64,000 nucleotides of DNA from an uncultured Rhodospirillaceae bacterium (GCA_964587125.1 CAZPKC010000001.1:163945-227944); one strand, 5' to 3'. Shown: positions 3,567 to 53,318, counted from the stretch's first letter. The notes: generated from the letters alone by a model not told the origin. Made by a program: numbers and translations.

Positions 3567-3643
3567 TGGCGCGCCCTAGCAGATTCGAACTGCTGACCTG
3601 CCGCTTAGAAGGCGGCTGCTCTATCCAACTGAGCTAAGGGCGC
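3567..3643 (-). tRNA. tRNA-Arg(UCU)
   Basis: 77-nt cloverleaf; anticodon arm gccgc-cTTCTaa-gcggc; GTTCGAA T-loop; encoded CCA. Confidence 0.97.
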
Positions 3644-3757
3644 TTTCTGAATAGTGTCGCGTAAGGAAGCTAATAATTGGTTAGTTCCTGTTTTTTCCCG
3701 GTTTAGTCAAGCGGAAACCGGCGCGCCGCCGGAGGCCTTTTCAAGGATTTGATCCCC

Positions 3758-4705
3758 TTACAGCCTGACCCACGTCAACTCGTGCTTGTTGTTGTGCAGA
3801 TGCACAATCCGCGAGCCGGGGATAACGGCAAATTGGCGCATCGTTTCGAAATCGGTCTCGCCCTGAAATTTAATTGTGCAGACGAAATGGCTGACGTTTC
3901 CCTCGGCCAGCCATTTCTGCACCATAGCCAGAAGCCTTTTGGGATAGCAAATAACGTCCGAAAACAGCCAATCGACGGCCCCTATCGTTTTTGGATCGAG
4001 CGCAAACGCGCTTTCGCTACGATATTCGACGTTCGGAAGGCTTGAAATTTTCTGGTCGAGAGGAGCCTTATCGACGCTGAGGACGCGCGCGCCGAGTTGT
4101 TGCAAAACCCATGTCCAACCGCCCGGACACGCGCCGAGATCGAGGCAGAATTCGCCTGGCTTTGGATGCTCTCCCAAAACCGTGAACGCTTCCCACAGTT
4201 TAAGATACGCGCGGCTTGGCGAGCCGATATGGTTTTCGACAAACTGCACCTCGCCGTTGGGAAACGCGCTAGAGCATTTGGACGAAGCCAGAAGCGTGTT
4301 CGCGTCAACAAGCGTCCACGAGCCGAGCGGCGCTTTGGGCGCTTCCGTCCCGAAAACAAGCGGCTTTGCCGAAATCTTCGGCAATTTTTCGGCGATCAGT
4401 GCGGCGCGGCGATGATGCGCGAAAGAATAAAGCGTCCAATTGCGTTGAATCGCGCGCAGCTTCTTGGCGGCGTCTCCTATCGATTCAATCGGGATGAACG
4501 CCGGATTGAGCCACGCATTCGAAGCCCACGCCGCGGGCTTGCGCGTATTTTTCGCCAGAACCAGATGATCGTATGTTTTGATGACTCTATCGCCTAATTC
4601 CTTCTGAAGATCGGCAACGAAGCCTTGCGGCGCAAGATAGGCCACGAGATTCTCCGTCTCAGGCAAATCGTCGGAAGGATCGGGATGTTCGGGCGTTTTA
4701 TTCAT
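3758..4705 (-). CDS. FtsJ/RlmM-like SAM-dependent RNA methyltransferase
   Basis: SRAYLKLWE, LDLGACPGGWT and LFSDVICYP motifs. Confidence 0.85.
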   Translation of the reverse strand: MNKTPEHPDPSDDLPETENLVAYLAPQGFVADLQKELGDRVIKTYDHLVLAKNTRKPAAWASNAWLNPAFIPIESIGDAAKKLRAIQRNWTLYSFAHHRRAALIAEKLPKISAKPLVFGTEAPKAPLGSWTLVDANTLLASSKCSSAFPNGEVQFVENHIGSPSRAYLKLWEAFTVLGEHPKPGEFCLDLGACPGGWTWVLQQLGARVLSVDKAPLDQKISSLPNVEYRSESAFALDPKTIGAVDWLFSDVICYPKRLLAMVQKWLAEGNVSHFVCTIKFQGETDFETMRQFAVIPGSRIVHLHNNKHELTWVRL

Positions 4706-9272: not shown

Positions 9273-10034
9273 ATGCGCATGCCCCATTCCTCGGAGAAGA
9301 AAAATACGCCCGATCACGCCCCTTCGACCGCGCGCTATAAGCGCGTTTTGCTGAAATTGTCGGGAGAAGCGCTTATGGGCTCGCGCGATTACGGGCTTGA
9401 GCCGGAGGTGGTCGATCGCGTCGCGGCCGAGATCAAGTCCGTGATCGATATGGGCGTCGAAGTTTGCGTCGTGATCGGCGGCGGAAATATTTTTCGCGGC
9501 GTTTCGGGCGCTTCGCAGGGAATGGATCGCGCCGCCGCCGACTATATGGGCATGCTGGCGACCGTCATCAACGCTCTTGCGATGCAGAACGCGCTTGAAA
9601 AAGCGGGCGTGCCGACGCGCGTTTTGTCAGCTATTCCGATGTCCTCGATCTGCGAGCCCTATATCCGCCGCCGCGCGATGCGCCACATGGAAAAAGGCCG
9701 CGCCGTCATTTTTGCCGCGGGCACAGGCAATCCGTTTTTCACGACCGACAGCGCTGCCGCCTTGCGCGCGGCGGAAATGCAATGCAACGCGCTTTTAAAA
9801 GCGACGAAGGTCGACGGCGTCTATAGCGCCGATCCGAACAAGGTCAAGGACGCCAAGCGTTACGACAGGCTCAGTTATCTCGACGTTCTGACGCAGGATT
9901 TGCAGGTAATGGACACTTCCGCCATTTCTTTGGCGCGGGAAAGCAAAATTCCGATTTTGGTTTTCTCGATCTTCACGCATGGCGCGTTTGCCAATGTGAT
10001 GCAGGGTAAAGGTAACTTCACGATAGTGGAGTGA
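9273..10034 (+). CDS. pyrH: UMP kinase
   Basis: [30 protein letters not shown] and [10 protein letters not shown] motifs. Confidence 0.98.
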
Positions 10035-10039
10035 CAAAA

Positions 10040-10576
10040 ATGAATCTCGATCAAACGAAGCAACGGATGGAAGCCTCGCTCGAGGCTCTGCGCAAAGAAT
10101 TCGCGGGTCTGCGCACGGGGCGCGCGTCGGTCAATCTGCTCGACGGCGTTCACGTCGAGGCTTACGGCGCGTCGTCTCCCCTCAATCAGGTCGGAACGGT
10201 CAGCGCGCCGGAGCCTCGGTTGCTGACGGTTCAAGTATGGGACATGGGTCTTGTCAAAAGCGTCGAAAAAGCGATCCGCGACGCGGGGCTTGGGCTTAAT
10301 CCGCAACCCGACGGCAATTTGATCCGCGTGCCGCTGCCGGAATTGAGTCAGGAACGCCGCGTGGAATTGGTCAAAATAGCGGGAAAATACACGGAACAGG
10401 CCCGCATCGCGGTTCGCAACGTGCGGCGCGACGCGATGGACGCCGTCAAGAAGGAAAAAGCGTCCGAAGACGAAACCAAACACATGAACGAAAAAGTGCA
10501 GAAGCTGACCGACGAAACCATCAAGAAAATAGACGAGCTTTTCTCGGCCAAGGAAAAAGAAATCACGCGCGTCTGA
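10040..10576 (+). CDS. frr: ribosome recycling factor
   Basis: [15 protein letters not shown] and RNVRRDA motifs. Confidence 0.97.
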
Positions 10577-11326: not shown

Positions 11327-12465
11327 TCCCTGTTTTTATAATACCGCCGCAACAAAAATGCCTGAAACGGCACGGCAAAAAGCGCCAAGGCGATCGCGAA
11401 ACCGAACGGCGCGCCAAAATGAATAAGCGCCGCGCAGGCCAGCGTGCCCAGAATGCCCCCGATGTCCCATCCGTATTCCATCATAAAGACCAGATGAAAG
11501 GGGCTCTGCGCCTTGCTTATGACCGTGTAAAGAGCCGTCATGAGCGTCGGATTATAGCTCGCCGTCACAAGCGCGCTCGCCATAGCGACGCCGTAGACGG
11601 AGACGAACGTCGGTTGCGCCGTGGCGCGAAAAAGGATCGCCGCCGTTAAAAGAACGGCGCTCATGACAACGGCGCGGGGGCCGTGGCCTTTATCGATGAA
11701 CCTTCCCAAGACAACTCCTCCCATCACCGACACGATAGCCGCCAGCGTCAGCGCTCCTCCGAAGGCCGTGAATCCGCGCCCCGCCCCCGTATACAAAACT
11801 ATGCCCCAGACCATGCCGAACCCCGTATAGATCCACGCATCCGTCGTAAAAAGGGCTATGGCGCTGCGCCCGGCCTTGAAAAGGCCCTCGGGAATTTTGG
11901 CCGGAACGCGGATCGGCGGCAAACCTAAAATCGGGATGATCGCCAAAAGATCGCACGCGGCGGCAAGGCCGAAAGTGACATGCTGGCCGACGTGATCGAG
12001 AAGCCAACCGCCCAAAAGAGGCGACACGATGGCCGTCGATGTCGCGAAGACCTCGCGGATTCCCACTTGTTTGCCGCGATGGGAGTTGTCGCCGACGATC
12101 GCGAAGATCGAATGAAAAGAGGTCCAGAAAAAACAGTCCGACAGCGCCTGCAACACGCAAAAAGCGAAAAAGAAGGCGTCGATCCCTTTCATGCGCGCAA
12201 AAAGCATATATTGGAACATGCAAAGAATGAGGCCGACGATGATCGTCCTGTGCAGCCCCACGCGGGGCGCGGCAAAGAGGATCAGGGGGCGAAAAATCAT
12301 CCGCAAGCTCAGCATCGCCGTGAAAGTCAGGATCGCCGCCGTCGGGGAAAATCCCTGCGAGATGAGAAAAACGATAAAAAAACTAAAGAAAAAATTCCAC
12401 CCCAGCATATGCAGGCCGTAATGGAGATTGATTCGGTTGACGGAACGGTTGGAGAAATAGGGCAT
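11323..12465 (-). CDS. MFS transporter
   Basis: about 12 hydrophobic segments; G...GRFIDKGH repeat motif. Confidence 0.8.
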   Translation of the reverse strand: MPYFSNRSVNRINLHYGLHMLGWNFFFSFFIVFLISQGFSPTAAILTFTAMLSLRMIFRPLILFAAPRVGLHRTIIVGLILCMFQYMLFARMKGIDAFFFAFCVLQALSDCFFWTSFHSIFAIVGDNSHRGKQVGIREVFATSTAIVSPLLGGWLLDHVGQHVTFGLAAACDLLAIIPILGLPPIRVPAKIPEGLFKAGRSAIALFTTDAWIYTGFGMVWGIVLYTGAGRGFTAFGGALTLAAIVSVMGGVVLGRFIDKGHGPRAVVMSAVLLTAAILFRATAQPTFVSVYGVAMASALVTASYNPTLMTALYTVISKAQSPFHLVFMMEYGWDIGGILGTLACAALIHFGAPFGFAIALALFAVPFQAFLLRRYYKNRD

Positions 12466-12500
12466 GAAACGCTAACTTCCTTGCACTTTAGAGGGCGTTT

Positions 12501-13352
12501 CTACGCCGGTTCGATCCGGTTTCTTCCTTTTGCCTTGGCGGCATACAACGCCGTGTCGGCTTTGGCCAACAGGCTTTCCACCGTCGATTGATCGTCGACA
12601 ACGACCATTCCGAAAGAGGCCGTGATGTTGATTTCCTTGCCGTCGATCAATCTGATCGGCAATTTTTCCAATCCCGACCGCACGCGCTCCAGAACCATCT
12701 TTCCGGTTTCAGCGTCCACTTCTTTCAGGCACAGCAAAATTTCTTCGCCGCCCCAGCGCCACGCTTCATCGAACGGACGCACGCTGCGGCTGATGTAATT
12801 CGAGATGGCCGATAAAACCCTGTCGCCGTTTTCATGCCCGTGCGTGTCGTTGACCCTTTTAAAATGGTCGATATCCATAAGGGCGAGGCAGAAAGGCTTA
12901 CGGGTGCGCAAAAACCGGCTCAGTTCGCGATTCAGGTCGTCGCGCATTCCCGCGCGCGAGCGAAGCCCCGTCAGCGTATCGAGCCCCGACTCCGCCGTCG
13001 CCAGCGCGCGTTCGAGCCGACGCAATCCCGTAATGAATTCCTGATATTTTATCGCGACGGCATCATAGTCGGCCGCCGTGACGGATTTTCCTTCGGGCGT
13101 TTTTAAAAGCGCGAGTTTGGCGATTCGGTGCAACTGATCGTAAAGCCCCACCAATTTGTCGAGCGCGGGCTGATCCTGAAGCGTTTTGACGGCCTCTGCC
13201 CGCCATTTTGCGAAGCTTTCCGGCGCGGGAAGATCTTCGGCGCGGGCGCTTGAGTCTTGCCGGTCGTAGAACGCGCTTCGCGTCCACGCCGACATCCAAT
13301 CGATGTGGTCGTCTATGGTTTGGGCAAGCAATGCGGTGGACAAAAACGACAT
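12501..13352 (-). CDS. diguanylate cyclase with N-terminal CZB-like domain (DgcZ-like architecture)
   Basis: DTLTGL, DIDHFKRVNDTHGH, RxxD I-site (RPFD) and GGEEI; N-terminal DHIDW...FAKW...LHRIA. Confidence 0.85.
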   Translation of the reverse strand: MSFLSTALLAQTIDDHIDWMSAWTRSAFYDRQDSSARAEDLPAPESFAKWRAEAVKTLQDQPALDKLVGLYDQLHRIAKLALLKTPEGKSVTAADYDAVAIKYQEFITGLRRLERALATAESGLDTLTGLRSRAGMRDDLNRELSRFLRTRKPFCLALMDIDHFKRVNDTHGHENGDRVLSAISNYISRSVRPFDEAWRWGGEEILLCLKEVDAETGKMVLERVRSGLEKLPIRLIDGKEINITASFGMVVVDDQSTVESLLAKADTALYAAKAKGRNRIEPA

Positions 13353-46073: not shown

Positions 46074-46310
46074 TCAGGCCAAGACGTCCACCAAACTTCC
46101 CCTCGGCAATTTCGCCGTGGAAGAGCCGCCGTTTTTCGAGGCCTGCGGCACGGCGAAAACTTTCACCGGCGCGACGGCGTTCGACGACCGTTGCTGCGTT
46201 TGCTGAACGGCCGTCAGCACCTGCGTGCTGCGCAAACTGTTCGTCTGCAACGCCGTCTGAGCGCGCTGGGTCGATGGAAGGGATGTGGAGCTTCCGATAG
46301 AGTCAATCAT
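46074..46310 (-). CDS. small Ser/Thr/Gln-rich hypothetical protein
   Basis: low-complexity 78 aa ending in PRGSLVDVLA. Confidence 0.6.
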   Translation of the reverse strand: MIDSIGSSTSLPSTQRAQTALQTNSLRSTQVLTAVQQTQQRSSNAVAPVKVFAVPQASKNGGSSTAKLPRGSLVDVLA

Positions 46311-46723
46311 GGGTCGTCCTCTCGATCTCTCTTTTTAAAGAGGTACCCTGTCCTAGGCTCTTGGTGAACGCGATCATCCTAATCACGTTTATTCGCGATA
46401 TGCGCGGAAGCGAAAACGCTTCAAGCCGAATCAATCGCTTATCTGGTTAAAAAAGCTAGTCCAACGAGTCGCCTTTGTCAAAAAAAGGGATAATATCGTC
46501 GTCATCCCGCAAAAGCCGCCTTTTTGCACTCGCAAAAAGGCGGCTTTATGCGGAATCCGATTGTTTTTCTTACATAAAAACATTAAAAGGGAAAAATCTC
46601 ATTTATTTTATCATTTTGTGTGATTTTTCCCTTGACTCGCCCTTTCGAAAGGCGTATTGACACTCCCACGGCGCATTGTATCCCGACTTCGCCAAGCAAG
46701 CCAAAATAAAACTCCCCGAACAA

Positions 46724-46870
46724 TAGACCTCTTGCATAACCCGCTCGGACGAGGGGAATGCGAGAAGCGAGGAGCGCAGGACCGCAAGCGTACTCCAACG
46801 TACGTGCGGATCCGAGCACCGAAGCGACAAAGCAGTCACCCGTCCGAGTTAGGGTTAGGCAAGGGGTCTA
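46724..46870. mobile_element. 147-nt palindromic element resembling Rickettsia RPE-1
   Basis: terminal inverted repeats tagacctcttgcataac / gttaggcaaggggtcta; internal gcgtac...gtacgtg...cgagcaccg core; TA at both ends. Confidence 0.7.
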
Positions 46871-46872
46871 AA

Positions 46873-47226
46873 ATGACCGAAAACGAAAACCCTCTGGCTG
46901 ACGAAGCCGTAGACACGCTGCATGGCCTGATGAAGGACAGCGAAAGCGATTCGGACAAGATCAGGGCCGCGAAAATCCTTCTCGACCGCGCTGCGCCGAA
47001 AGAAGACGATGAAGCAAAAAAACACGAAGCTGAAGAACGTGACGCTGCGTTTACAGAGGCGTATGGACTCCTTACGGAACTTGCCCGCTACAAATATGCA
47101 TTCCATCGCCTCCAGAATGCGCTGGCTGAAGCAAGCAAGGCCCCAGCAGCTGACCCCGCCCGGCAATTGGCGGATTTGGCTGATTTTGGCTGGGCGCGGC
47201 TGGGGGAAGACGAGAACGGGGGCTGA
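46873..47226 (+). CDS. putative small terminase-like protein
   Basis: helical DKIRAAKILLDRA segment; overlaps the 5' end of the large terminase. Confidence 0.55.
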   Translation: MTENENPLADEAVDTLHGLMKDSESDSDKIRAAKILLDRAAPKEDDEAKKHEAEERDAAFTEAYGLLTELARYKYAFHRLQNALAEASKAPAADPARQLADLADFGWARLGEDENGG

Positions 47227-47557
47227 GGATATTGCCCATTACGTTCTCTGGAACCCGGGCGTGCGCGTCGGCGTGATAGCCCCTACTTATGCCGACGCGC
47301 GCGATACCTGCGTCGAGGGCGAAAGCGGCCTTTTGGAAACGATTCCTCCCGCCTGCATCGAGAAATGGAACCGCTCGATGGGCGAGATGATGCTCAAAAA
47401 CGGAAGCCGCATCAAATTATTCTCCGCCGACCAGCCAGAGCGGCTGCGCGGCCCGCAGCATCACCGCGTGTGGTGCGACGAAATGGGAGCTTGGGGAAAG
47501 CGCGAAGCCTTCGATCAGCTCTTTTTCGGATTGCGCTTGGGTAAACCCGTTACATAA
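47009..47557 (+). pseudogene. large terminase, ATPase N-terminal half only (GTA g2-like), truncated
   Basis: W...ARPQQLTPPGNWRIWLILAGRGWGKTRTGAE (Walker A), ERLRGPQ, WCDE (Walker B); breaks after GLRLG; nuclease domain absent. Confidence 0.9.
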
Positions 47558-47802
47558 ACCCTGATACCGGTCAATCAGTAGTGATCGATAATTCGACAGG
47601 CTCTGTTATCCATGTAGGCGGTCAAGATTTTCAGTATGGAATAGAAAGCGGAGACCTGCCTAACGCACAAATCAGACCGGGAACTTTCAGCTCAGGGAGC
47701 GCGGGTGGTGGTGGAGGTGGAGGCGGTGGAGGCGGTGGAGGTGGAATGTTTGGCCATATATTTCCAAAAATTCCCGGTGATTCAGAACAAGAATTAGAAT
47801 AG
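47545..47802 (+). pseudogene. C-terminal toxin fragment (colicin E5-like RNase) with a poly-Gly tail
   Basis: hand translation TRYINPDTGQSVVIDNSTGSVIHVGGQDFQYG; 14 Gly codons at 47704-47745; 5' part missing. Confidence 0.6.
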
Positions 47803-47828
47803 GATATTGCAAAACACGGGTGATAGAA

Positions 47829-48164
47829 ATGCAAGAACCAGCATGGATTTCAATACTACCGCCGGACTTGACAAAAATGGCCTATCGAGCGGGAGCAGAA
47901 TTGGCGTGGCCTCGCGATCAGGCTTTGCGTGTTTTAGATTTGTTGAACAAGAAAAAATATATCATCGTCGGCGTGGAAACTTGGATTCCTACCAAACCGG
48001 GACCAACACCGCTCATTAATGATTGGACTCCTGAGCGCGCAAAAAAATCCGATTCATTTCCCCAAACTGCACAAAATTTTGTTTCCGCCTTCAAGCGCGA
48101 TCCGGCTGAAAATGGGGGGGTAGCTACCATTTTTTGTATTTCTGCACTACGTCCTAAGAATTAG
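47829..48164 (+). CDS. immunity protein, Imm40-like
   Basis: AELAWPRDQALRVLDLL...IIVGVETW pattern; lies directly downstream of the toxin fragment. Confidence 0.6.
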   Translation: MQEPAWISILPPDLTKMAYRAGAELAWPRDQALRVLDLLNKKKYIIVGVETWIPTKPGPTPLINDWTPERAKKSDSFPQTAQNFVSAFKRDPAENGGVATIFCISALRPKN

Positions 48165-48185
48165 ACATACAGCACGGGTCTGCGC

Positions 48186-49082
48186 GTGATCGCGGGCATA
48201 GATCATTGGCTGTGCCCGATGTACCGCGACAGGCCGGAACTCGACTTCGATCCCGATGCGATAAGCGCGCTCACCGACAAGCGGCAAGCCCAATGGAGCA
48301 AAGTCCAAAACGCCAACTTCCTGACGCGCAACGAAAAGCGCGAGGCGGCGGGCTATGGCCCCGTGCCGGGCGGCGACGAGGCAGACGATTATGACGACGG
48401 GACGAAACGCGCGGCTCGGCCAAAATTTAACCCCTATCACGACGACCTAGGCCGCTTCACTTTCGGGCCAGGCGAAGATGACGATGGGGATGACGATACT
48501 TCATCGGATCAACCTCAAAGCTCGCCAAGCGGTTCAGACAGCGGCCCCGGAATTTTCGGCTTGCCGGAAAATATAGAGCATCCGGCAACCGCAACTCCGG
48601 CAAACGCGGGGCCAGCCGATAATAATTCGTTTGATGCCGATAAGGCGGTTGATACGCTAAATCAAAATGTCGACGAGCTTAAAAGACAGCAGATTGAAGA
48701 TGGACAACCTAATTTGTATGGAGAGCACGCCTGTGCACAATATGTCAGGGGCGCTTTAAACGATGGCGGTGGACTCAATGTCGGGACACCGGCAAACGGG
48801 CTAGGAAACGCTGCAGACTATGGTCCTCCACTCGAAAATGCCGGGTTTCAACCTGTCGCCAACGGCAACGCATATCCGCCGGAAGATTATACGCCTCAAG
48901 CCGGAGATGTGGCAGTTATTCAACCCACAAACGAAAACGCGAGTGGTCATATGGAGATGTATAACGGCTCGCAATGGGTTTCGGATTTTAGACAGGATGG
49001 GTTTTGGCCGGGGCCTCATTATAGGAATGAAACGCCTCATTTTGTCATTTACCGCTATCCAAACTCCTCGATAAACATATAA
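48186..49082 (+). CDS. portal C-terminal fragment fused in frame to a Cys/His (CHAP/Tae-like) amidase domain
   Basis: DHWLCPMY...DPDAISAL...W.KVQNANFLTRNEKREAAGYGPVPGGD (portal tail); KFNPYHDDLGRFT; acidic linker; CAQYVRGAL...PQAGDVAVI...SGHMEMYNGSQWVSDFRQ. Confidence 0.8.
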   Translation: MIAGIDHWLCPMYRDRPELDFDPDAISALTDKRQAQWSKVQNANFLTRNEKREAAGYGPVPGGDEADDYDDGTKRAARPKFNPYHDDLGRFTFGPGEDDDGDDDTSSDQPQSSPSGSDSGPGIFGLPENIEHPATATPANAGPADNNSFDADKAVDTLNQNVDELKRQQIEDGQPNLYGEHACAQYVRGALNDGGGLNVGTPANGLGNAADYGPPLENAGFQPVANGNAYPPEDYTPQAGDVAVIQPTNENASGHMEMYNGSQWVSDFRQDGFWPGPHYRNETPHFVIYRYPNSSINI

Positions 49083-49087
49083 AAACC

Positions 49088-49717
49088 CTATTGCTCCGAA
49101 GACAGGGAAATTGTTTCAGGACAGCAAATGCTATCGATACGCCAAGCTCCACGTTCAACCCTGAGCCGAACAGAAAGACGCACCGCAAAATAAGAACGCC
49201 CACCATTAGGACGAAAAAGGCGACTTGCGACAATCAAAGCACGATCCCCATCCATCTCGATAAGTTGTGCCGTTGCGTTAAGCCACTCGTCAAATGCGTC
49301 CTGTGAACAAGTTATAACGTTTGTACCGGAGGGACAATATTGAGGCTTTGGCTCTGGCTCCTGATCTGATGTATAGGTTGTCGTCCAGTGATAAAATTCT
49401 GATGTCAACATTTTACGCATAATTATATCTTGATTACGCGCGCGAACATGTTCACTACGCGCCTCTGCTGAAAACTTTCGAGGGAATGAGAAAAAAACGA
49501 TGTTGTTTGCCTCATTCCATTTGTAGAAACCTGCGACAAAAGCTTCCAGATGTTCGGAACTGCGGTCGCAGGTGGCGGCGTCTTTGCACTCGACAAGCGC
49601 GGGAGGTTGTATTTTTTCCGCTTTTTCGACCGAGACTTTTGCCGACGCTCCGGATGAAACGGCGAGCAACGCCGCCAGAAACGTGAGGATAGAAATCAGG
49701 CGTTTGCGCAGTTTCAT
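49088..49717 (-). CDS. secreted DUF3828/YbjP-like protein, candidate amidase immunity protein
   Basis: Sec signal peptide; FVAGFYKW, CSQD..W and V.L..ERGAWRIDSI. Confidence 0.65.
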   Translation of the reverse strand: MKLRKRLISILTFLAALLAVSSGASAKVSVEKAEKIQPPALVECKDAATCDRSSEHLEAFVAGFYKWNEANNIVFFSFPRKFSAEARSEHVRARNQDIIMRKMLTSEFYHWTTTYTSDQEPEPKPQYCPSGTNVITCSQDAFDEWLNATAQLIEMDGDRALIVASRLFRPNGGRSYFAVRLSVRLRVERGAWRIDSICCPETISLSSEQ

Positions 49718-50337
49718 TTTTGCAAATCCTCGAAGCGAAGAGCCTTTAAACTATCAAGTCCTGACCAACTTGCAATAATTTCCTGACGCGCAACGAAAAG
49801 CGCGAAGCTGTGGGCTACGGCCCCGTTCCGGGCGGCGACGAAGGGGACGGCGGCATAAACAACCTGCTTCACTCCGATCAGCCGCCGAAGGATTTTGAGG
49901 GAGGCTTTGTGATGCTCGAGGCTCTCGTGGCTCGCGCAGGCTTTTGAAAGGACGACGGGGCGGAGGCCTGCTTCGAACAAATCCACGGCGGTTTTAAGGA
50001 CGCAGCAATCTGTGTCGATGCCGCAAAGGAAAACTTCCGAAATTTTGCGCTTTTTCAAAAGGCGGAGAAATTTTTCATCGACGCAGGTGTAGACGCGCTT
50101 TTCGAAAATTTCGGCGCGGGCGCAGGGTTTGAAGGCAAGTTCCGTGTCTTTCGTTCCTATGCCGAATCTTTTCCATTTCAGCAGTTTGCGGAAAGGCGAA
50201 CGCGGCGCGTTGACGACGCGGAAGATGAACACGTTGCGAAAATAGGATTGCAGCGCCTCGACGATCGCCGGAATTTTTTTCGTGCGCTTGTTGATGAATC
50301 CTTTTTGCACATCGATGATAAGCAGGCATGAGATCAT
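49714..50337 (-). CDS. isochorismatase/cysteine hydrolase family protein with read-through C-terminal extension
   Basis: LLIIDVQKGF, FEKRVY and CGIDTDCCVLKTA; tail reads antisense through the portal repeat. Confidence 0.85.
   Translation of the reverse strand: MISCLLIIDVQKGFINKRTKKIPAIVEALQSYFRNVFIFRVVNAPRSPFRKLLKWKRFGIGTKDTELAFKPCARAEIFEKRVYTCVDEKFLRLLKKRKISEVFLCGIDTDCCVLKTAVDLFEAGLRPVVLSKACASHESLEHHKASLKILRRLIGVKQVVYAAVPFVAARNGAVAHSFALFVARQEIIASWSGLDSLKALRFEDLQK
49777..49841 (+). repeat. second portal-tail copy (59/65 nt identical to 48315-48379)
   Basis: encodes NFLTRNEKREAVGYGPVPGGDE; 6 mismatches, 5 of them synonymous. Confidence 0.9.
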
Positions 50338-50420
50338 AACGCGAGGCTAGCAGACGCCGCGCGGATATTCCAGCGCCGGATGGTGCTTTTCAAGTTTTTC
50401 CAACAACCAAAAAGGCAATC

Positions 50421-51002
50421 ATGGACGTTAAACACATGTCCCTTCCGCTGAGGGTCAAGACTCTCGGCGGCGACGGGATTTTTACGGGTTACGCCTCCGT
50501 TTTCGGCGAGCTCGATCAGCAAAACGAAATCGTGGCTGCGGGCGCGTTCTCACGCACGCTGTCGAAGTGGCGGCGGCAAAATCGCACGCCCGCGCTTTTG
50601 TGGATGCACGATCCGACGCAACCCATCGGCATCTGGCAAAGCGTCCGCGAAGACGCGAGCGGCCTTCTGGTCGAAGGACGCCTCGCGCTTCGCACGCAAA
50701 AAGGCGGCGAGGCTTACGAACTTCTCAAACTCGGCGCGTTGACCGGCCTTTCAATCGGCTATCGCGTCGTCTCTAGCCAGATCGACGCCAAACGCAAGGC
50801 CAGAATCCTGACTGACGTCGATTTGTTCGAAATTTCGCTGGTGACTTTTCCGGCGAACGAAGCGGCGCGCGTCAGCGACGTGAAAAGAAGGGACCGGCAT
50901 TCGGAATCCGGCGTTCGGGGAAAAGAATGCATCGATCCCTCCCTTTTGGCCCAAGCCGCCGAAAGACTCCGCCAAGCCGCGCGAACTTTGACGGACAGAT
51001 AA
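50421..51002 (+). CDS. HK97-type prohead protease (GTA g4-like)
   Basis: FTGYASVF, LLWMHDP..PIGIW, GLSIGY and EISLVTFPANE. Confidence 0.95.
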   Translation: MDVKHMSLPLRVKTLGGDGIFTGYASVFGELDQQNEIVAAGAFSRTLSKWRRQNRTPALLWMHDPTQPIGIWQSVREDASGLLVEGRLALRTQKGGEAYELLKLGALTGLSIGYRVVSSQIDAKRKARILTDVDLFEISLVTFPANEAARVSDVKRRDRHSESGVRGKECIDPSLLAQAAERLRQAARTLTDR

Positions 51003-51028: not shown

Positions 51029-51607
51029 ATGATTGATATGAGCGAAGTACGCTCGGCCACCGATACTCTGGCGCGAGCTTTTGAAGAATATAAAAGCGTC
51101 AACGACCAGCGTTTGCACGAAATCGAGCAACGCGGATCGGCCGACGTTCTGCACGACGAACATCTGGGCCGCATGGACAAGTCCATCAACCGGCTGCAGG
51201 ACGACATCACGAGCCTGAAAACCTCGATGCTGCGTCCGGGCAAGTCGGGCGCGTCTTTGGCTCCGGCAGACAGCGCGCACAAGCAGGCGTTTTTGAAATA
51301 CATCGCCAAAGGATACGACGCGGGGCTGGCCTCGTTCGAAAGCAAATCTTTGGAAGTCATCAACAACGCCGAAGGCGGATACATGATTCCGCCGGAACTT
51401 TCCGACCGCATCGTCACGCGCCAATACGACACCACGCCGATGCGCCAGATTTCGACGGTCATGAGCATCTCGACCGAAGCGGTCGAAATGCTGCGCGATA
51501 CGAACGAACCCGTCGCGTTGTGGATTTCGGAACTGGGCGTTCCGGCTCCGACATCCGAAGGATTGTTGGAACGGCGCAAACTTTGTTCGGCGGAACGACG
51601 CCTGTGA
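51029..51607 (+). pseudogene. HK97 major capsid protein, N-terminal part (GTA g5-like), truncated near 51540
   Basis: AFEEYK..ND.RL.EIE.RG.AD, GGYMIPPE and PMRQISTV; similarity stops after LWISE. Confidence 0.88.
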
Positions 51608-51810
51608 ACGGATTCGCCGTATACAATCCCGACTCCACGAACGATCTGTGGATCAGCGACAGCACGACGGCCGCCGTCAATGGTGTCGGTTCCATTCGTA
51701 TTGTAGCCAACGGCGGAGGTTTCGAGACGCCCCCGGGATATAAGCCGCTTGGAGCCGTGTCGATCGTATCGGCAACGACCGGCGCCAAAATCACCGCACG
51801 CCGGTGGTGA
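51545..51810 (+). pseudogene. 5'-truncated phage structural protein (possible head decoration/fibre partner)
   Basis: GTAQTLFGG..P.NGF.V.NP...ETP.GYKP.G.VSI...TTG.KITARRW; true start lost at the junction. Confidence 0.55.
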
Positions 51811-51815
51811 GCGTC

Positions 51816-53021
51816 ATGTGTCCGCTTATCTTTCCGCCCGACACGTACGCCAGCGGAGGTTTCGACCTGCGCACGTACAAAAGAGGCGTCGGACCCGTTT
51901 CCGGCGTGGTCAAAACTTATAATTTTCTTTCCGGAACATTGCCGAGCGACTTGACCTTCTCCCGCGCGTCGAGTGCGTGGTATTTCAACTCGTCGGGCGT
52001 TTTGACGCAAGCGTCGAGCAATGCGCCGCGTTTCGATTACGGGTATTATGGAAGCTCGTCTTTGCAGGGACTGTTGGCCGAGGGGCAAAGCACTAATCTG
52101 GCTCTCCAAAGCAACGCTTTTACAACCTCTCCGTGGACAAAATCGGCGGCCGTTACGGCAGGGGCCGCCACTTCTCCCGATGGAACGACGGACGCTTTTT
52201 CGTTTCTGGCCTCGGCGGCATATCAATATGCGCGTCAATCCATAACCCTCTCGGGAAGCACGACTTACACGTTATCCTGTTGGCTGCGCGTTTCCTCGGG
52301 CACTTATACGAATTTAGAATTGTACGGGTACGACGGAACCAGCCAATACGGGGTAACGCCGACGATCACAACGACGTGGACGCGCTATACAAAAACCTTC
52401 ACGACGGTGGCTTCGCCGTCAGCCGGAACTATTTATTTACAGGATAATAATACGAGCGGATGGCAAACCGTCTATATCTATGGAATGCAACTCGAACAAG
52501 GTTCTTTGGCTACTTCCTATATCCCGACGACAACGGTAACAGTCACCCGCGCCGCCGACAGCCTTTATAACTCTTCGCTTCCTTGGTTCAACGCGACGAC
52601 GGGGACTTTTGTCGCGCGCGGCATTCTTGAAGGGGCAAATACTTCTCATGCGGCCTATCTCTCGTCGTTCAGCGACGGAACGGCGAATAACAATATCGCG
52701 TTGTTCGCAAACACAAGCGGAAAGGCGCAAGGCGGCGATACGGTTTCCGGAACGGCCTATACGTCTGCCGCGACTGCCGGAAGCCCTGTCGTTGGAACGG
52801 CGTTTAAGCAAGCCCTTAAATACGCCTCCGGCAGCAATGTCGCCGATTTTGGGAGCACGATAGACGGCGCGGGAACTTTCGGCGCAGCCGCCATACCTTC
52901 GGGCATAAGCCGTCTCGATCTCGGCAATAATGTAAGCGGAACGGCGGCTTTCAACGGCTGGCTGCAATCGTTCTCTTACTACAACACGGCTTTAACCAAC
53001 GCGCAAATACAGGGGCTATAA
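51816..53021 (+). CDS. phage head-spike/fibre-like protein
   Basis: LTFSRASSAWYFNSSG, PRFDY, GLL.EG..TNL..S..F...W, QLEQGS.ATSYIPT, VTRAAD; Ser/Thr/Gly-rich. Confidence 0.75.
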   Translation: MCPLIFPPDTYASGGFDLRTYKRGVGPVSGVVKTYNFLSGTLPSDLTFSRASSAWYFNSSGVLTQASSNAPRFDYGYYGSSSLQGLLAEGQSTNLALQSNAFTTSPWTKSAAVTAGAATSPDGTTDAFSFLASAAYQYARQSITLSGSTTYTLSCWLRVSSGTYTNLELYGYDGTSQYGVTPTITTTWTRYTKTFTTVASPSAGTIYLQDNNTSGWQTVYIYGMQLEQGSLATSYIPTTTVTVTRAADSLYNSSLPWFNATTGTFVARGILEGANTSHAAYLSSFSDGTANNNIALFANTSGKAQGGDTVSGTAYTSAATAGSPVVGTAFKQALKYASGSNVADFGSTIDGAGTFGAAAIPSGISRLDLGNNVSGTAAFNGWLQSFSYYNTALTNAQIQGL

Positions 53022-53318
53022 ATGACAGACTTTTACTTTTCCGCTTCTTCTTACAACACGCTTGCCGGAATGCTGACGGGCAACGTCGGCGGCACGTTTC
53101 AGGTGCTTTACCAAAACATTCTTGGCCCCGCGCAGGGACGCGCCGCGATTCCGGCCGGAACGGACGCGAACGGCAATCCTGTCGCCGCCGTTCCTGCGGT
53201 GGGCGATCCCTCAACGTGGTATGTCGGGATTCGCAACGATGCTGCAATGACGCCGCCTACAGGCGTTTCCGTTTGCGACGCGGCGACGGGCGCGGAAGTG
53301 CTGGGAGTGTGGATGTAA
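53022..53318 (+). CDS. hypothetical phage-associated protein
   Basis: starts immediately after the fibre gene stop; Gly/Pro-rich. Confidence 0.6.
   Translation: MTDFYFSASSYNTLAGMLTGNVGGTFQVLYQNILGPAQGRAAIPAGTDANGNPVAAVPAVGDPSTWYVGIRNDAAMTPPTGVSVCDAATGAEVLGVWM

Follow-up and report, generated by a model that had tools for sequence, protein, structure and literature searches.

A likely decayed polymorphic toxin-immunity locus built on the portal C-terminus of an RcGTA-type gene cluster in an uncultured Rhodospirillaceae bacterium

Among described systems, the MuF (SPP1 gp7 / Mu F) toxins of temperate phages (PMC3482391, PMC5576092; Apk2 and Bxa, PMC11699363) come closest to the arrangement reported in this study. 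They combine an N-terminal head-morphogenesis carrier with variable toxin C-termini, are directly followed by immunity genes, and are located in the packaging module, by the terminase and portal genes. We describe a locus that shares this plan, in a 64,000-nucleotide stretch of an uncultured Rhodospirillaceae bacterium (GCA_964587125.1, CAZPKC010000001.1:163945-227944), whose full 64 kb are referred to as the window; the region of the locus was read on both strands. The toxin modules are attached to the C-terminal end (tail) of the portal protein of a cluster resembling that of the gene transfer agent (GTA) RcGTA, and we consider it likely that the locus is a decayed fossil of a polymorphic toxin-immunity locus based on that portal C-terminus. 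In both the MuF and the portal system, packaging in the head and co-injection with DNA are presumed and the role is unproven. Unlike MuF, which is present in one or two copies, the carrier is here the essential portal (PF04860), present in 12 copies, and it is encoded in an RcGTA-like cluster instead of a temperate phage. Pfam scans detected no MuF domain (PF04233/PF06152 or MuF3/4) in proteins of the window or in those portals of related loci that bear toxins. Moreover, arrays of orphan modules headed by carrier fragments are prominent in the portal system, whereas the word 'orphan' is absent from Jamet 2017 (PMC5576092). Related loci and proteins are denoted below by L and P numbers, respectively.

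Between the large terminase gene (terL) and the prohead protease gene, we recovered the gene order given in a preliminary description of this DNA, namely the remnant of a toxin C-terminus, a small gene, a portal tail fused to an amidase (tail::amidase), a signal-peptide gene on the minus strand, and a second portal tail (Table 1). That no intact portal is present, as also claimed there, was verified by tblastn: across the 64 kb, the portal P0017 (405 aa) matched only by its 3'-end pieces, residues 333-397 (48183-48377) and 377-397 (49777-49839). The portal C-terminus was also weakly matched by Pfam and PHROG. The two tails form a direct repeat (48315-48387 versus 49777-49849; 88% match over 73 nt), and over the 65-nt segments previously compared (48315-48379 and 49777-49841), the identity of 59/65 was reproduced exactly, with five of the six differences being synonymous. 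The N, E, A, Y, and V codons differ silently and the sole replacement is A>V. A Nei-Gojobori analysis of 25 codons gave a synonymous divergence (dS) of 0.65 versus a nonsynonymous divergence (dN) of 0.055 (omega ~0.08), which agrees with the earlier statement that the tails are two coding alleles and not a duplicated read. Since the differences are mostly synonymous, both copies appear to have been functional coding sequence while they diverged; recent duplication and read collapse were rejected because of the 12% divergence, almost all of it synonymous. Tail 1 exhibited an omega of 0.07 against the portal of the intact locus L004, and tail 2 lies in an open frame extending over 49765..49947. 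The cargo genes were more AT-rich than the packaging genes, as had been noted, with a GC content of 0.46-0.49 versus 0.57-0.59; that of the portal tails was 0.64-0.67.

A profile built from the tail, an acidic linker, and a short pre-toxin motif was compared with 1.84 billion representative proteins, giving 1220 matches, of which the best 150 were used. Among the proteins P0001-P0182, 48 exhibited the tail, the motif, and a C-terminal extension, and the 36 C-termini of at least 60 aa fell into 25 BLAST clusters, contrary to a picture of one invariant tail with no toxin or immunity diversity. The complete portal domain (Pfam Phage_portal) followed by an extension was found in P0080, P0035, P0036, P0037, P0055, P0093, and P0136. 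P0080, for example, combines PF04860 (positions 1-320/321) with PF18431 RNAse_A_bac (CdiA-CT RNase A), a domain also detected in P0173. Other C-termini were named by Pfam as Colicin_E5 (P0069), Pesticin (P0051, E 5e-32), WHH/Colicin-DNase (P0106), and, weakly, AHH (P0093). When the tail::amidase protein of the window was used for the search, portals with the same C-terminus were P0004 (whose portal body covers at least 240 residues) and P0005, and in P0026 the portal tail was joined to a different C-terminus. Further fusions of a portal to a variable C-terminus (portal::CT) were found in L178, L011, and L102. Portals of about 700 aa were considered as giant toxin fusions and set aside as a class of their own: the scanned example, P0068, was a portal-MuF protein with no motif, and the others looked similar by eye.

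In what would be the intact state of the system, one gene encodes the complete portal, the acidic linker, the motif, and a variable toxin, and is followed by a putative immunity gene; older modules would remain downstream as orphans headed by portal 3' fragments. L102 illustrates both parts, with terL, a full 639-aa portal carrying the motif and an RNase-A-like C-terminus, and a 98-aa gene, followed by an orphan in which a portal 3' fragment and the motif lead into a different C-terminus, and then by a 148-aa gene. In L247, five successive tail::motif::CT modules precede the protease and capsid genes, most with a trailing small gene. Three tails were found in L216, three modules in L010, and at least two in L093; in L007, an array precedes a complete RcGTA-like cluster. 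Together with the two tails of the window and the two of L102, these loci exhibit the stem-headed downstream orphans of polymorphic toxin systems (Zhang et al. 2012), with the portal body or tail as the conserved stem to which different C-termini from known toxin families are attached. A small gene followed nearly every module inspected; none was obvious after the L247 module at 3614..4303. The survey of portals with C-terminal extensions proposed in the preliminary description therefore yielded variable toxins, adjoining small genes, and repeated tails, and its view of the portal C-terminus as an exchangeable stem with displaced copies downstream is borne out by independent loci (L102, L247, L010, and L007).

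Several of these fusions lie in well-preserved clusters. On L091, a 119-kb contig, g1, terL, a 631-aa portal::RNase A, three small genes including a DUF2019 gene, the protease, and the capsid are followed by genes up to g12 (DUF2460), g13 (BR0599), g14 (NLPC_P60), and the start of a large gene. Three samples (L094-L096) shared an identical 582-aa portal::CT, which overlaps a 113-aa gene downstream; in L094 and L095, a compact RcGTA-like cluster comes after these two genes, and g15 (Rcc01698_C) was present in L007 and L095. As far as the contigs extend, the RcGTA-like gene set was complete and in conserved order in L007, L091, L094, and L095, with no genes for phage replication, lysogeny, or lysis. 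In addition, L178, from the window's own metagenome, contained the intact 3' end of terL, a 590-aa portal::CT, a 203-aa gene, and a protease near-identical to that of the window. What these loci show directly is how carrier, motif, and toxin are arranged, how diverse the toxins are, which genes adjoin them, and that orphan arrays exist.

Toxin-bearing portal bodies belonged to at least four clades, with 46-56% identity between clades. Inside one clade, toxin-bearing and plain portals were 85-89% identical, which suggests that the extension has often been gained and lost. It is an uncommon trait: of 160 loci fetched with the stem, 17 had an extension of at least 90 aa (some of the MuF type) and three had at least two tails.

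In the orphan module of the window, the domain following the linker and motif belongs to the Tae3 family of peptidoglycan amidases. The profile match to PDB 4hz9_A spanned 109 residues, and the Cys codon at 48732-48734 and the His codon at 48948-48950 correspond to invariant positions in 13 aligned homologues, so that both homology and the catalytic Cys/His pair are present. Pfam CHAP was detected below the cut-off (E 1e-4). Tae3 is a type VI amidase effector, and 4HZ9 is the Tae3-Tai3 complex of Ralstonia pickettii (PMC13095208, PMC6099711). As in that system (PDB 4HZ9/4HZB), the Tae3 homologue lies beside a secreted protein; unlike in that system, the amidase does not stand alone but is fused in frame to a portal tail, and no type VI secretion system (T6SS) genes were found among the genes called about 10 kb either side of it. 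The Tae3 domain was 82% identical to that of P0002 in L007 with an omega of ~0.06, which indicates long purifying selection on this toxin.

The adjacent 209-aa protein exhibits an N-terminal signal peptide, read from its sequence. Homologues (30-45% identical) were found at the same place and in the same orientation after Tae3-like C-termini in L007 (twice) and L010, so that the Tae3-like C-terminus and the signal-peptide family are paired in four modules. The family shares the motifs CDR..EHLE.FV..FY.W and WRID, and the sole PDB match of its profile was 4hz9_B (Tai3), a weak one (E 0.16). Of the DUF3828-like label previously given to this gene, the weak Tai3 match is what remained, as no Pfam match was obtained. 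An AlphaFold model based on a three-sequence alignment was too poor for fold comparison (pLDDT 49). A minus-strand gene located between portal and protease in L004 was considered as a Tai3-like gene and rejected, its sequence being unrelated to the family.

For the first module, the evidence comes from P0069, in which a portal tail and the motif KFNPYHDPDNGQFTFG precede an RNase domain recognised by Pfam as Colicin_E5 (PF12106, residues 166-231). The first 44 codons of the frame 47545-47802, which begins directly after a stop codon, matched P0069 residues 205-248 with 55% identity (E 6e-15). The PF12106 domain is incomplete, with only about its last 27 residues kept in the window, and the RNase module is therefore a pseudogene remnant. 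Its 114-aa partner is an intact open reading frame (ORF), and the pairing of a colicin-E5-like C-terminus with this family was observed at two loci, the window and L093. This gene had been labelled Imm40-like; a precomputed weak match points that way, but it was not reproduced in Pfam scans. No Pfam match was found for the 85-aa, 114-aa, and 209-aa products, and no PHROG match for the latter two. Small zinc-ribbon (CPCC-like) ORFs were also observed beside portal-tail toxin modules, downstream of P0026 (L009:765-935) and upstream of the P0069 module (L093:10-267), and may represent another immunity family.

The second tail bears no toxin. Next to it ends an isochorismatase-family gene of the minus strand, whose own stop is missing and whose last ~45 codons are the antisense of tail 2. 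This gene is probably unrelated cargo or an insertion; no homologue was found at the corresponding position in the related loci inspected.

Table 1. Positions of the cassette features and of the surrounding cluster genes in the window.
Feature	Position	Strand	Evidence
g1-like small gene of the RcGTA-type cluster (within ORF 46657..47226)	46873..47160	+	tblastn with the L004 gene upstream of terL: 54%, 97 aa; L004 DNA synteny
Large terminase (terL), N-terminal 150 codons only	47096..47545	+	tblastn: L004 terL residues 1-150/407, 83%
Pseudogene remnant, colicin-E5-like RNase C-terminus	47545..47802	+	homology 47545-47676; glycine-codon run 47699-47745
Candidate immunity protein, 114 aa, intact ORF, no signal peptide	47820..48164	+	42%, E 1e-29, to the gene right after P0069 in L093
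Portal tail 1, last ~65 codons of an RcGTA-type portal (residues 333-397)	48183..48379	+	tblastn P0017, 82%; blastn L004 portal 3' end, 84%
Orphan module ORF, 298 aa: portal tail, acidic linker, pre-toxin motif, Tae3-family amidase	48186..49082	+	ORF list; homologues P0004, P0005
Pre-toxin motif (RP)KFNPYHDDLGRFTFG	48423..48461	+	motif scan
Tae3-family (CHAP/NlpC-P60-like) peptidoglycan amidase domain	48603..49082	+	family profile versus PDB 4hz9_A, E 4e-35
Signal-peptide protein, 209 aa, candidate periplasmic immunity (Tai3-like)	49088..49717	-	position/orientation; PDB profile match 4hz9_B
Isochorismatase-family gene, 207 aa, 3' end abutting tail 2	49714..50337	-	Pfam PF00857, E 6e-24, residues 3-151
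Portal tail 2, last ~21-25 codons, toxin-less	49777..49851	+	repeat; 86% to L004 portal 3' end; P0017 residues 377-397
Prohead serine protease (S78), apparently intact	50421..51002	+	Pfam PF04586, E 8e-34; tblastn/blastn to L007, L004, L011
Major capsid protein, N-terminal 185 codons only	51029..51583	+	tblastn: L007 capsid residues 1-185/407, 84%; Pfam Phage_capsid positions 1-63 only
Tail protein, C-terminal half, 405 aa, with carbohydrate-binding module	51804..53021	+	PHROG 5939 positions 357-760/801, E 8e-49; Pfam CBM_4_9

The cluster that surrounds the cassettes is broken. Instead of a complete g1-g15 head-tail set in conserved order, the window contains g1, terL residues 1-150, the portal tails, the protease, capsid residues 1-185, and a tail-protein fragment. 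The terL fragment covers only positions 19-116 of the Pfam Terminase_6N profile and its frame ends at a stop codon (47555-47557), with blastn homology stopping at 47541. By tblastn, none of the L007 cluster genes downstream of the capsid (g6-g15 region) had a homologue in the 64-kb window; within 51804-53318, the tail-protein half and a 98-aa ORF are the sole remnant of the tail genes. Promoters and terminators predicted over 46300-50600 were at chance level. Judging from these boundaries, the cluster was gutted by two deletions, the first of which would have joined terL codon ~150 to the middle of the colicin-E5-like toxin, removing the portal body and leaving the 114-aa partner intact, and the second capsid codon ~185 to the middle of the tail protein. 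As terL, portal, capsid, and tail genes are all broken, no particle could be built from the window cluster and no delivery could start from it.

From alignments to L004, L007, and L011, we infer that the ancestor probably comprised terL, a portal fused to the colicin-E5-like C-terminus, its immunity gene, an orphan module (tail::Tae3-like C-terminus and Tai3-like gene), a further tail, the protease, and the capsid. The synonymous divergence from L007 (pS) was 0.71, i.e., saturated, in the Tae3 domain versus 0.44 in the capsid and 0.52 in the protease, and since it is higher in the former, the cassettes do not appear to have been inherited with the cluster. Their low GC content, the synonymous differences between the tails, and the high toxin pS all point to a foreign origin. 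The age order proposed in the preliminary description (plain tail oldest, RNase newest) is drawn by analogy with contact-dependent inhibition (CDI) and Rhs loci and may hold here as well. At present, the most likely role of the locus is that of an immunity island, protecting against toxin-bearing particles of neighbours such as L178. The odd truncated phage genes of this region would thereby be explained as those of a decayed weapon locus whose immunity genes have outlived the weapon.

The pre-toxin motif lies between the acidic linker and the variable toxin, in the form KFNPxHDxxGRFTxG or KYSPDQPRVPAG..GGQWTxGG in intact relatives, and it precedes unrelated C-termini in the 48 proteins mentioned above. 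No Pfam family covers it. Repeats of the form (T/K)K(F/Y)NPYHDERGRF were also found, with a spacing of ~200 residues, 11 times in P0089 (2764 aa) and seven times in P0108 (1984 aa), giant proteins with ART-PolyVal or six ADP-ribosyltransferase exoenzyme domains (ADPrib_exo_Tox). The motif thus seems to behave like punctuation between cargo domains, and its recurrence in polyvalent-like giants links it to head cargo without revealing how it acts. A similar sequence, DVLHDEHLGRMDKS (compared with the pre-toxin motif NPYHDDLGRFTFG), was observed in the capsid delta-domain, a scaffold region (window 51090-51130). It may be a coincidence, or a shared protease or docking signal; as it is missing from the L247 capsid, no claim is based on it.

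Besides the portal tail, a second carrier of ~45 aa, here called stem2, was observed at the N-terminus of proteins with the same motif and various toxins (consensus ~M.LE.R..EIHEKA..LA..FYLRKG.VP.EL.EII.AT.SL). It was located at L011:1398-2066, 9815-10408, and 12123-12689, at L007:1680-1810, and at L001:10001-10819. Within GTA-like clusters, stem2 occupies several positions (following terL or the g6 adaptor); in L007, it separates a frameshifted portal fragment from the Tae3-like C-terminus, and in L001, it was found once, adjoining a MobA/MobL relaxase in an integrative element. Another GTA-like cluster with cargo among its structural genes was observed in L257 (GCA_900291855.1, OLLY01000216.1; 6265-10604), where an Ntox44-like gene, a Tai3-like gene (P0185), and, after the g6 adaptor, a lysozyme fragment with LprI (lysozyme inhibitor) were present.

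For the intact state, a mechanism can be proposed in which storage in the head, release, exit together with the DNA, and survival of kin follow one another, and to which we give a little less than an even chance. The portal C-terminal crown faces the capsid interior, and the toxin extensions of the 12 portal subunits would therefore be held inside the head. The toxin might be freed at or near the motif, perhaps by the co-encoded S78 prohead protease, and would leave with the DNA via the portal and tail channel into the periplasm of the recipient. Peptidoglycan hydrolases would act there, nucleases would need further import, and kin carrying the cognate immunity gene would survive. RcGTA releases its contents into the periplasm by way of a 28-Å portal channel (PMC7296036), and periplasmic ejection fits both the peptidoglycan-hydrolase C-termini and the signal-peptide partners. 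A broader proposal, which we advance tentatively and regard as rather doubtful, is that RcGTA-type particles of several lineages of Alphaproteobacteria double as kin-discriminating toxin injectors, with the portal C-terminus, and stem2 at other sites in the cluster, tethering swappable toxins inside the head and a universal motif (KFNPxHDxxGRF / KYSPDQPR..GGQW), common to phage polyvalent proteins as well, marking head cargo for processing or release. The cassettes could even be swapped by the particles themselves, because the conserved portal and protease flank modules of ~1-1.5 kb.

A number of points weigh against this reading. Toxicity, neutralisation, packaging, cleavage, and delivery are all inferred from the sequences. 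Twelve attached domains of 20-30 kDa might disturb portal function, and folded domains cannot pass a 28-Å channel unless they are unfolded. A nuclease toxin delivered to the periplasm would require an import step, and peptidoglycan-hydrolase C-termini could simply aid DNA entry. In the window, the ORF at 48186-49082 has no visible ribosome-binding site or start signal, and its Tae3 cassette is probably silent. Moreover, the Tai3-like proteins (window 49088-49717, L007:2524-3159, and L010:1923-2396) were only 30-45% identical versus 82% for the Tae3-like toxins of L007 and the window. Cognate pairs would not be expected to differ in this way; toxin and immunity genes may have recombined, or the immunity gene may evolve fast. 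Finally, all portal::toxin examples came from metagenomes or metagenome-assembled genomes (MAGs). With the Tae3 domain as the seed, a scan of GTDB species representatives returned 209 relatives from many phyla, and when most of 80 loci were scanned for the motif, the portal tail was found only in the MAG L011, with no cultured example; in L011, the portal-fused C-terminus is not Tae3-like, and the Tae3-like C-terminus is carried by stem2 instead.

The presence of peptidoglycan hydrolases among the C-termini (Tae3-like, Pesticin, and possibly GH108-like by eye, with no Pfam match) also raises the improbable alternative that the portal extensions are virion entry enzymes or host-takeover effectors rather than weapons against non-kin, the small genes protecting the producer during assembly. 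RcGTA already ejects a cell-wall peptidase (PMC7296036), the motif is common to polyvalent proteins, and portal fusions to PBECR, 2H, and InPase, mentioned in passing in parts of PMC5512222, are so interpreted there. Entry enzymes would not, however, be expected to fall into 25 unrelated C-terminus clusters including colicin-type RNases and DNases, nor to be stacked in orphan arrays, up to five modules long, in which every module has a partner gene of its own, nor would their partner genes be expected to persist after the loss of the particle genes, as in the window.

The cassettes could also be selfish addiction modules or generic toxin islands that insert beside the portal, with the portal fragments as by-products. 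Their AT-rich, foreign cargo would fit this, as would the Tae3-like C-terminus carried on the other 45-aa stem beside the relaxase of L001 and the wide distribution of Tae3-like domains outside GTA clusters (the 209 GTDB relatives). We nevertheless hold it to be very unlikely, given that many independent lineages (bodies 46-56% identical between clades) have the toxin fused in frame to a complete portal present as a single copy, and that the fusion is always made via the same tail and motif. Such a pattern is not expected from random insertion, which would inactivate an essential gene if the fusion product did not function. As for the stacked tails, metagenome assembly and a locus full of truncated genes might suggest local tandem duplication followed by decay, or a chimera of two strains, with no biological meaning. 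The tails, however, are 12% apart almost only at synonymous sites, and the same architecture recurs in unrelated samples (L007, L010, L102, and L247). The tail::amidase gene was in addition reported on three contigs of more than 200 kb, the contig shown being found in two samples, which makes a one-off chimeric assembly unlikely; duplication or chimerism as a whole has, in our view, a negligible probability.

The reading as a portal-borne toxin-immunity system can be placed among known systems. The relatives resemble RcGTA-type GTAs in gene order (terL-portal-protease-capsid...g12-g15) and in their chromosomal setting, seen in the upstream flank of L091, and the flanking synteny of the window is shared with L004, a MAG of Alphaproteobacteria. 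To our knowledge, the characterised RcGTA portal has no toxin extension, and in full-text literature searches we came across no account of polymorphic toxins on a portal or of GTA clusters with a toxin cargo; the arrangement is apparently undescribed. GTA production kills the producer cell, and the reason for which GTAs are maintained is a long-standing question. If the proposed mechanism is true, toxin cargo and kin immunity would give GTA particles a direct competitive role, like that of a DNA-carrying tailocin, and this role would become testable. The sequences thus raise the possibility that GTA-like particles deliver toxins besides DNA.

For the cleavage step, the T4 internal proteins and Alt offer a precedent, being head-packaged proteins that the prohead protease cuts free at a short targeting sequence and that are injected along with the DNA. 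They are encoded by separate genes with an N-terminal capsid-targeting sequence, with no portal fusion, polymorphism, or immunity genes. Phage polyvalent proteins (Iyer 2017, PMC5512222), in the parts of that work consulted, likewise include effectors fused to portal or MuF proteins and presumed to be packaged and injected, and motifs of the KFNPYHDERGRF type also separate the domains of the giant ART-bearing P0089 and P0108. Unlike the extensions described here, the polyvalent fusions are seen in those parts as aids to infection and counter-defence, and the same passages mention no immunity genes, hypervariable C-termini, or orphan arrays; text searches of that work found no description of the pre-toxin motif. 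The motif may be a general tag or cleavage site of head-carried proteins, and could then help to annotate and engineer head cargo.

Overall, these loci extend head-packaged polymorphic toxins from the accessory MuF protein to the essential portal, and exhibit orphan arrays of the CDI and Rhs type in a virion gene. As in CDI (cdiA-CT/cdiI), Rhs, and MafB loci, a full gene with its first C-terminus and immunity gene is followed by modules headed by stem pieces (L102 and L247), a short pre-toxin motif marks the junction, and some toxin families are shared, e.g., PF18431 CdiA-CT RNase A and colicin-type nucleases. The portal loci differ in that carriers of the type V secretion system, T6SS, or Sec kind are absent, as are VENN, PxxxxDPxGL, and MafB motifs; a structural protein of the virion provides the stem, and a phage-like particle is the vehicle that we propose.

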